Source: Escherichia coli (GTDB taxonomy: Bacteria > Pseudomonadota > Gammaproteobacteria > Enterobacterales > Enterobacteriaceae). Taken from it: DNA of 50,012 bases. The notes below the pieces were generated by a model. The model saw only the letters and a program-made list of their open reading frames with translations, had not been told where the DNA came from and made no database searches. Positions 13,497-13,688 of the stretch are shown piece after piece (positions within the stretch are counted from its first letter, which is position 1; the number at the start of each line of letters is the position of its first letter). A program made the translations under genes and the position numbers. The stretch lies in assembly GCF_003334315.1 (NCBI RefSeq), contig NZ_QOWR01000033.1. One strand, given 5' to 3'.

Positions 13497-13688
13497 TTAT
13501 CGTGAGTTTTTAGTACAGATTTTTTTGGATTTACTAATAGTTCCATCATTGCAAACGAATTTGCCATCAGAGGTACAGTGAGAAACACCTCCCTTTTTCC
13601 CTGAGCAGGGATAATTTCTAGCATAGGTAGCTAGTGGGTTTAATAACAAAGAACATGACAAAACCACAAAAAATACCTTACCAAGCAT
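13497..13688 (-). CDS. Small predicted secreted Cys-rich protein (cargo ORF between int and cI)
   Basis: 63 aa; N-terminal hydrophobic signal-like segment; six cysteines; AT-rich relative to neighbours. Confidence 0.4.

Follow-up and report, generated by a model that had tools for sequence, protein, structure and literature searches.

A close described counterpart of the locus analysed here is the lysogenic operon of coliphage 186, in which, according to the phage annotation, the promoters pL and pE drive cI, int and orf69, followed by a "predicted terminator of lysogenic operon". A second related arrangement is known from the peduovirus K139 of Vibrio cholerae. Its GenBank annotation gives the order PL-cI-orf2-glo-int and describes Glo as a periplasmic protein involved in phage exclusion, and a literature source that cites work on this protein (PMC3952083) likewise presents it as soluble, periplasmic and involved in the exclusion of phages. 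Rousset et al. (2022, PMC9122126) describe a defence hotspot between cI and int in K139-like phages, and an integrase-primase interval has been reported to account for 8% of the defence systems of P2 phages (PMC9122126; bioRxiv 10.64898/2026.02.27.708500). It has also been reported that periplasmic nucleases encoded by mobile elements destroy or block incoming DNA (PMC12378983).

Genomic context and the proposed lysogenic operon

The window, i.e., the whole stretch of DNA that was analysed (50,012 nucleotides), originates from Escherichia coli. Its left flank carries ybjJ and rcdA, as in the annotation of strain C43(DE3), and a 186-type prophage spans about 12.2 to 46.8 kb. According to the ORF list, a 63-aa ORF with an ATG start codon is found on the minus strand at 13497..13688, which agrees exactly with the coordinates given in an earlier reading of the same DNA made from the sequence only (hereafter, the sequence-only reading). 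The placement of this ORF between int (12256..13308) and cI (13704..14279) was borne out as well, as was its location in AT-rich DNA (35–37% GC at 13300–14100 versus 45–53% on both flanks). The features of the locus are as follows:

13497..13688, minus strand: coding sequence (63 codons and stop) of a small, predicted exported protein of the YdcA family (NF007463, phrog_6000, PF27300; dN << dS)
13620..13688, minus strand: signal-peptide codons 1–23, with a predicted signal peptidase I cut after Ala23 (hydrophobicity profile and alignment)
13500..13619, minus strand: codons 24–63 of the predicted mature peptide (calculated; invariant residues; AF2 pLDDT 86–92 over the core)
13694..13699, minus strand: Shine-Dalgarno sequence GGGAGG, 5 nt 5' of the ATG (sequence read directly)
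13704..14279, minus strand: gene for the 186-type cI repressor, 191 aa (ORF; RefSeq "phage repressor protein CI"; homologues with Phage_CI_repr and Phage_CI_C)
12256..13308, minus strand: integrase gene, 350 aa from MAVRKL..., the putative last cistron of the lysogenic operon (ORF; matched by the Int of L006 and L010, also 350 aa)
12175..12196, minus strand: terminator-like hairpin and T-run after int, the probable end of the lysogenic transcript (position analogous to that of the phage 186 terminator)
13398..13504, no strand assigned: short non-homologous spacer that separates the YdcA gene from int and marks the variable cargo slot (blastn against relatives)

The locus and the lysogenic operon of coliphage 186 (pL/pE-cI-int-orf69) have the same type of cI, the same gene order and the same orientation, and in both, an apl-cII-fil early region is present and the operon is followed by a terminator. 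They differ in the cI-int interval, where phage 186 has nothing and the window has an inserted 192-nt gene followed by a spacer of ~190 nt. The sequence-only reading had remarked that the core P2 genome has no gene at this position. As regards the type of the prophage, this has to be corrected, as the 191-aa cI, apl, cII and fil identify it as 186-type rather than P2 proper; the point itself holds, as the cI stop codon of phage 186 overlaps the start of int.

In the window, the stop codon of cI (13704–13706) is located 15 nt upstream of the ATG of the YdcA gene, and inspection of the sequence at the ribosome-binding site showed that the minus strand reads ...CCGGGAGGAAATT ATG. Apart from the hairpin at 12196–12175, no terminator-like site was found on the minus strand from 14300 to 12100, and thus none between cI and the end of int. 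From the 15-nt gap to cI, the GGGAGG sequence and the lack of a terminator before the end of int, we infer that the ORF is an extra cistron in a 186-type lysogenic operon, the order of which would be pL/pE, cI, ydcA-like gene, int and terminator. Judging from this architecture, the ydcA-like gene would be co-transcribed with the repressor in lysogens and translated from its own strong Shine-Dalgarno sequence, and the lysogen probably makes the protein.

The same position is occupied by the gene in relatives. In all of the six enterobacterial homologues (from E. coli, Klebsiella (two), Hafnia, Yersinia and one metagenome), whose products are 60–88% identical to the window protein, the gene is found directly after a 186-type cI (Phage_CI_repr and Phage_CI_C) and before int. 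The content of the interval from the YdcA gene to int differs among the six: three (L006, L009 and L012) have a 443-aa KAP NTPase (the L006 copy corresponds to PADLOC PDC-S20, 1e-171), one has an unknown 347-aa protein, and the other two have nothing. Klebsiella phage KP12, with an integrase 98% identical to that of the window, has a cI-int interval without the YdcA gene and with a PD-Lambda-1 ATPase (7e-120). When the int-ORF-cI stretch was compared with the INPHARED phages by megablast, only int was matched (97–98% to Klebsiella phages), and no INPHARED phage with this cI and YdcA module at high identity was found. A blastn comparison with the relatives revealed that homology runs from cI through the YdcA gene, ends at ~13505–13520 and restarts at ~13397, just upstream of int. 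Since homology breaks off just after the YdcA gene, the gene is part of the block on the cI side, and the slot in which genes are exchanged comprises ~108 bp (13398–13504). The sequence-only reading had considered the location typical of lysogenic-conversion cargo. Exported-peptide cargo is indeed supported, but the gene is not a free-floating one: it is kept with cI, and the variable slot follows directly downstream. The likeness to the defence hotspots of P2-like prophages lies in the cI-int interval of the relatives, which carries PD-Lambda-1 or the KAP NTPase (PDC-S20); the locus differs from these hotspots in that the YdcA gene remains beside cI and it is the gene downstream that changes, and in that the YdcA gene has no PADLOC entry.

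Outside of the enterobacteria, Haemophilus phage HP2 (Peduoviridae) has an intact homologue of 60 aa, and its start codon (ATG) overlaps with the stop codon of cI. The homologue, which the HP2 reference record leaves unannotated, is followed by a secreted 254-aa ORF and then by int. A conserved partner gene downstream of the YdcA gene was considered and rejected, as HP2 orf1(S) and the neighbour in Moraxella bovoculi show no similarity (E 1.0). The neighbour of the YdcA gene in Herbaspirillum appears unrelated as well, judging by its translation.

Family membership, selection and predicted export

Profile searches revealed that the ORF protein matches NF007463 (NCBIfam, PRK10040.1-2) with 114.6 bits against a curated cutoff of 93, its residues 5–63 aligning with positions 1–58 of the 58-position profile. 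The K-12-type NCBIfam model, NF007462, gives 68.5 bits (4e-19), which is under its cutoff of 118, and the sister model NF007464 also scores below NF007463. In addition, the protein matches phrog_6000 (3e-34), and PF27300 (YdcA) is precomputed for the identical database protein. The sole match in Pfam-A, of which the copy used is older than PF27300, was a meaningless one to GULLO2 (E 0.11). Identical protein sequences are encoded on at least 1000 contigs in a large protein collection, where they are called either "hypothetical protein" or "YdcA family protein", and the latter is the name used for this protein in recent RefSeq records. The protein is therefore already known, both as a sequence and as a member of the YdcA family, and represents no new kind of element.

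Several other names and namesakes were set aside. In UniRef, the identical sequence is named "Conjugal transfer protein", a name that is given without supporting evidence. The "ydcA" of F-like plasmids and of the gonococcal genetic island is an irrelevant name clash (the entry for ydcA in a pS88 table reads putative adenine-specific DNA methylase, and the text on the gonococcal genetic island assigns ydcA no function), and YdcA of Bacillus subtilis is an unrelated rhomboid protein. A literature search on the gene itself, including PF27300, PRK10040 and WP_001321204, returned nothing useful.

The ORF is found over at least 80% of its length in 628 of the 5426 complete E. coli genomes, the copies being nearly all chromosomal and single, and the E. 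coli B/BL21 lineage carries a copy that is 93% identical and located next to rcdA. A search of 1.84 billion representatives with a profile of the mature domain led to 329 clusters at 50% identity. Family members are also found in ordinary chromosomal contexts, e.g., in Moraxella bovoculi and Herbaspirillum; other homologues are located amid the structural genes of Moraxella phages or come from Acinetobacter and Pseudomonas phages. With the YdcA family, including YdcA of E. coli K-12, the window protein has in common a full-length match, equal size, a signal peptide, the four-Cys pattern C-x9-C-x7-C-x11-C and the motifs PCSGKKGG and CNDGxxSxSK. It differs from K-12 YdcA in its subgroup, which is the prophage-borne NF007463 in the case of the window protein and the chromosomal NF007462 in the case of K-12 YdcA.

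For the analysis of selection, the coding DNA of the window was compared with that of E. coli L006, Klebsiella L009 and L012, metagenome L014, Hafnia L016, Yersinia L018 and Haemophilus phage HP2. Over a 32-codon core, the 28 pairs gave pS values of 0.48–1.0, i.e., near saturation, versus pN values of 0.01–0.17. In the case of the window and L006, there are 20 differences at 20.8 synonymous sites and two differences at 75 non-synonymous sites. The comparison of synonymous and non-synonymous changes across related prophages, which had been named as a check in the sequence-only reading, thus reveals strong purifying selection, and the other check, conservation of the reading frame, showed the frame to be intact in every related prophage examined.

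Dozens of spurious ORFs are listed in the window, so that a length of 63 aa is unremarkable by itself, and the case for a real gene is based on homology and the substitution pattern, not on ORF size. The sequence-only reading had allowed for a spurious ORF in AT-rich DNA, and the 35–37% GC of the region, as well as the many nearby chance ORFs of 30–60 aa, would fit with that. The probability of this is practically nil: it is excluded by the score over the curated HMM cutoff and by synonymous sites that are saturated while the peptide is nearly unchanged, and the 329 family clusters and the strong Shine-Dalgarno sequence also speak against it. The 63-aa ORF is a real gene that selection maintains, and its product belongs to the YdcA family.

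The N-terminus of the protein is hydrophobic and signal-like, as had been proposed: a lysine at position 4 is followed by hydrophobic residues 5–16 (Kyte-Doolittle 9-mer means, 1.9–2.7), and T-Y-A is found at −3 to −1. The signal peptides of the homologues are nearly unalignable in sequence, yet all of them keep the n/h/c-region layout, and the alanine at −1 (Ala23) is nearly invariant among the 36 homologues. Based on this anatomy and on what is known of Sec, the precursor would be exported by the Sec pathway and cleaved after Ala23. The predicted mature product has 40 aa, a calculated mass of 4.29 kDa, a pI of 9.7 and a charge of +6.8, with seven Lys, two Arg and four Cys; the mean charge of YdcA family cores is +3.3.

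The sequence-only reading had counted six cysteines in the mature part, which is wrong. The protein has five in total (positions 12, 28, 38, 46 and 58), four of which are in the mature part, and the very string quoted in that reading contains four. Cys12 is located inside the signal peptide and is not conserved: it is present in a subclade only, and most homologues have V, G, T, F, S, I or A instead. A loose lipobox pattern of the PROSITE style accommodates the sequence V-V-L-S-C, and Cys12 might on that account be taken for the lipobox cysteine of a lipid-anchored product. This lipoprotein reading was rejected on conservation in the 36-sequence alignment, as a residue that is not conserved does not constitute a lipobox; moreover, only about seven hydrophobic residues are found ahead of Cys12, and a canonical signal peptidase I site with the near-invariant alanine lies 11 residues downstream of it. 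We regard lipid anchoring as highly implausible.

The YdcA core (~35 aa) is characterised by four invariant cysteines and the motifs PCSG-K-GG and C-x-DG-x-x-S-x-SK, all of which are found in the window protein. The residues invariant in the 36-sequence alignment, P27, C28, S29, K32, G33, G34, C38, F44, C46, G49, S52, S54, K55 and C58, are likewise all present in it. In the AlphaFold models, the core forms a short beta-hairpin; the full-length AF2 model (36 sequences) has a pLDDT of 77 overall and of 89–92 over residues 31–50, and the mature-only model has a pLDDT of 79. In the periplasm, and in keeping with what is known of Dsb, the four invariant cysteines would be oxidised to form two disulfides that lock a small beta-hairpin knot, and the oxidised knot would resemble one lobe of Legionella Dis2. 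The proposal of a small periplasmic or secreted peptide is supported by the family match, the frame kept in relatives and the substitution pattern, with expression and localisation as predicted properties.

Probable relationship to Dis2 and domain fusions

Dis2 (Lpg0823; chain AN of 7MUC/7MUD), a protein of the Legionella Dot/Icm outer-membrane cap, is the only PDB entry that recurred across the searches. It is the top PDB match by hmmsearch (E 0.059 and 0.017 for the single-domain and the tandem-domain profile, respectively) and the top Foldseek match of both models (probability, 0.80–0.96; 36–39% identity over 37–39 columns; TMq, 0.40–0.60). When the YdcA core profile was compared with 25 Dis2 orthologues, hhalign gave a probability of 90.8% (E 1.2e-6), and PF27300 is precomputed on two Dis2 orthologues. 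Both proteins contain the motifs GG(V/I) and (V)VCN(D/N)GxxS, and their cysteines are found at corresponding positions. Dis2 is a tandem of two lobes with five disulfides, whereas the window protein is a single lobe with four mature cysteines, and the conserved YdcA lysines are absent from Dis2, in which the basic residues of YdcA are not kept. Furthermore, Dis2 is a T4SS part, described in the literature as restricted to Legionellales, in contrast to the prophage-borne window protein; a search of the prophage and its flanks for T4SS genes found none. It is probable that YdcA is homologous to each of the Dis2 lobes. According to the literature, Dis2 contacts DotK, DotC and DotD near the outer membrane, which are lipoproteins and not DNA, and Dis2 is dispensable (PMC12716638).

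Longer members of the family, of which 21 were scanned, have the YdcA domain directly after the signal peptide and N-terminal to a partner domain. The partners include SNase (P0123 and P0195), Endonuclease_NS (two members, including P0202) and a PLD/NucT-like nuclease (P0196). Further arrangements are a fusion with the PBCV basic adaptor domain (the 101–153-aa form, NF007464) and tandem YdcA copies. The gene for P0123, an SNase fusion, lies on the contig of a P2-like phage, beside gpD, gpU and the tape-measure gene. The combination of the same small basic module with three unrelated nuclease families points either to nucleic-acid binding or to placement of the enzyme where DNA enters the envelope. 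A DNA-binding YdcA module would agree with the nuclease fusions, and a module that tethers to the envelope or binds protein would do so equally.

Proposed role and competing explanations

The best explanation overall, put forward tentatively and with somewhat less than an even chance of being right, is that of a YdcA mini-protein of the lysogenic operon that is exported, disulfide-bonded and active in exclusion. The mini-protein would act in the periplasm or at the inner face of the outer membrane. Its ligand would be polyanionic or outer-membrane-proximal, with incoming DNA as the first choice and entry-related envelope machinery as the second, and binding of the ligand may result in superinfection exclusion by the lysogen or in a broader limit on the entry of foreign DNA. 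That a lysogen is protected in this way against incoming DNA or phage is suggested by analogy and is a slightly more doubtful proposition, although a possible one. It draws on the defence genes in the adjoining slot of relatives, the reported hotspot in K139-like phages, the nuclease fusions, the basic cores of the family and the known periplasmic nucleases of mobile elements. Points against exclusion are that no PADLOC model covers the protein, that Dis2 binds proteins, is dispensable and lacks the basic residues of YdcA, that the phenotype of chromosomal ydcA is one of stress tolerance, and that the family has non-prophage members. In a scan of the ORF protein against PADLOC-DB v2, no family was matched at E <= 0.01.

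The model for exclusion is Glo, the periplasmic protein encoded between cI and int in peduovirus K139. Both genes are located in the cI-int interval of a peduovirus lysogenic operon, and both products have an N-terminal signal peptide. A soluble periplasmic product made in lysogens, as Glo is described (K139 annotation; PMC3952083), is what is predicted for the window protein. Glo differs in having 137 aa and no Cys knot, and exclusion is shown for Glo, whereas for the window protein it is a hypothesis only. Homology of Glo to YdcA was considered and rejected, as hhalign gave a probability of 2.5% and only the signal peptides align; since Glo is not homologous, the analogy is positional only.

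A different view would be that the gene is a host-fitness factor of the lysogenic-conversion kind, which contributes to tolerance of envelope, acid or organic-acid stress and has no role connected with phage or DNA. The only phenotype found for chromosomal E. coli ydcA agrees with this, as its deletion renders E. coli W sensitive to 300 mM 3-hydroxypropionate, and expression of ydcA is acid-induced, its up-regulation at pH 5 under YdcI control being cited in the same paper (PMC7642389). The window protein also matches the K-12-type model at 4e-19, and family members are known from ordinary chromosomal contexts. However, the chromosomal phenotype comes from one growth experiment, and the window protein falls into another NCBIfam equivalog (NF007463), its NF007462 score being short of the cutoff. 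Moreover, a stress-tolerance role does not explain why the gene is so tightly and translationally linked to cI in divergent peduoviruses, nor why fusions to nucleases recur, and we consider it unlikely, while giving it serious weight. Less probable still is an accessory of an envelope machine that, in the manner of Dis2, would dock on outer-membrane lipoproteins or OmpA-like proteins and modulate a secretion, pilus or phage-release apparatus without contacting DNA. The Dis2 matches obtained by hmmsearch, Foldseek, hhalign and, in two orthologues, PF27300 argue for such a role, as do the contacts of Dis2 with DotK, DotC and DotD, but the neighbourhood of the gene encodes neither a T4SS nor a comparable machine, Dis2 is two-lobed with five disulfides and without the conserved lysines, and Dis2 itself has no demonstrated function.

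The mature product, being small, cysteine-stabilised and strongly basic (+6.8, pI 9.7), is superficially defensin-like, and a secreted cationic antimicrobial peptide or bacteriocin-like toxin directed against competitors of the lysogen would have these properties. Adjacent genes for immunity, maturation and export are absent, however, and a Sec signal peptide alone would lead only to the periplasm in a Gram-negative cell; use of the domain as a module in larger enzymes is also untypical of bacteriocins, which makes a toxin very improbable. The probabilities assigned to the exclusion reading and to its rivals do not add up to certainty, because a function of an unforeseen kind is possible.

Extended to the whole family, the exclusion reading would make YdcA mini-proteins a widespread, unrecognised class of phage-encoded periplasmic effectors that bind DNA or the outer-membrane-proximal entry apparatus through a single disulfide-knotted lobe of the Dis2 type, are co-inherited with 186/HP-type repressors in the immunity module and block foreign DNA, while the module targets nucleases and has been duplicated into Dis2. 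In this full form the proposal is rather unlikely to hold. If it is true, about 12% of E. coli, the B/BL21 lineage among them, would block superinfecting phage and conjugative or transforming DNA, and the same block would be expected in the naturally competent Haemophilus, Moraxella and Acinetobacter. The YdcA module would then also direct secreted nucleases to their substrate, and its duplication would have given rise to Dis2 of the Legionella T4SS.

In the literature searched, there was no description of the fixed place of the YdcA gene behind cI in 186/HP-type lysogenic operons, of the gene missed by the HP2 reference annotation, or of the fusion of the YdcA domain to three unrelated families of secreted nucleases. 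Neither was the probable homology to the Dis2 lobes found there; the literature refers to Dis2 as species-specific and without structural relatives. Together, these points provide a testable hypothesis for a 40-residue periplasmic peptide that would be made by lysogens, as well as a starting point for working out what YdcA and Dis2 do. A widespread mini-protein that is presumably expressed in lysogens is a solid testable lead and no surprise in kind. Derivatives of E. coli B/BL21 carry the gene, which makes experiments straightforward.

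Genes carried between cI and int

The cI–int interval of 186-like phages is a small defence hotspot, since relatives of the prophage in the window hold either a KAP NTPase or a PD-Lambda-1 ATPase at this position:

L006 (E. coli) 4198-5529, L009 (Klebsiella) 4224-5555 and L012 (Klebsiella) 4198-5529: 443-aa KAP NTPase, between the YdcA gene and int
L001 (Klebsiella phage KP12) 4169-5845: PD-Lambda-1 ATPase, between cI and int (7e-120)

PADLOC analysis revealed that the KAP NTPase of L006 matches PDC-S20 (1e-171) and also gives a PifA-like match, which is weaker. In Haemophilus phage HP2, the interval harbors an intact 60-aa YdcA homologue (L002:2944-3126; about 2486-2668 in the coordinates of record NC_003315), which is unannotated in the reference genome of this phage. 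The start codon of the HP2 gene overlaps the cI stop, and the gene order is cI, YdcA homologue, secreted orf1(S) and int; the same match was obtained for phage S2. A degraded 186-like prophage is found at the same rcdA-side site in the E. coli B/BL21 lineage (L022, C43(DE3), NZ_CP011938: 870129-876320). It retains cI, int and a YdcA gene 93% identical to that of the window, while cII and replication genes are pseudogenes.

Two promoter-like sites were noted close to int and cI of the window prophage:

13361-13333, minus strand: TTGACA-17-AAAAAT, directly upstream of int
13708-13736, plus strand: TTAACA-17-TATAAT, 11/12 consensus match, antisense to cI

Chance alone may account for both sites in such AT-rich DNA, because the five promoter-like sites observed in the region do not exceed the 5.5 expected from shuffling.

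Frameshifted variants and an overlapping frame

The YdcA ORF contains A-runs within 13500-13620 of the window, such as the A7 run near 13510. Several database variants of the encoded protein (P0003, P0004, P0034, P0055 and P0061) are frameshifted at homopolymer runs; most of these variants have few members and come from read-level assemblies, and they could represent either sequencing errors or occasional inactivation. The frame that they enter is that of a second ORF:

13472-13624, minus strand: 50-aa ORF, overlapping the YdcA gene on the same strand in another frame

This 50-aa ORF showed no sign of being a gene.

Probable YdcA-type lobes in Dis2, and a YdcA-nuclease fusion

According to the literature, Legionella Dis2 (Lpg0823) is species-specific and has no structural relatives. 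Comparison of Dis2 (7MUC/7MUD chain AN) with YdcA gave an hhalign probability of 90.8% (alignments A2 and A5), Dis2 was twice the top Foldseek match, and PF27300, the Pfam family of YdcA, is assigned to two Dis2 orthologues. Based on these results, Dis2 appears to consist of a tandemly duplicated lobe of the YdcA type.

A YdcA-SNase fusion (P0123) is encoded at positions 5001-5669 of L027, a metagenomic P2-like phage contig, where its gene has gpD, gpU and the gene of the tape-measure protein as neighbors. The fusion protein is a candidate phage-borne periplasmic nuclease.

The gpA-to-portal hotspot

The gpA-to-portal hotspot of the window prophage (20520-25641, plus strand) holds a DarT/DarG pair followed by PADLOC matches to Hp1, Hp2 and Hp3:

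20520-21101 and 21106-22077, plus strand: DarT/DarG pair (1e-36 and 1e-80)
22739-23836, plus strand: Hp1 match, 3' of the DarT/DarG pair (E-value, 7e-64)
23838-24962, plus strand: Hp2 match (E-value, 2e-47)
24940-25641, plus strand: Hp3 match (E-value, 1.5e-8)
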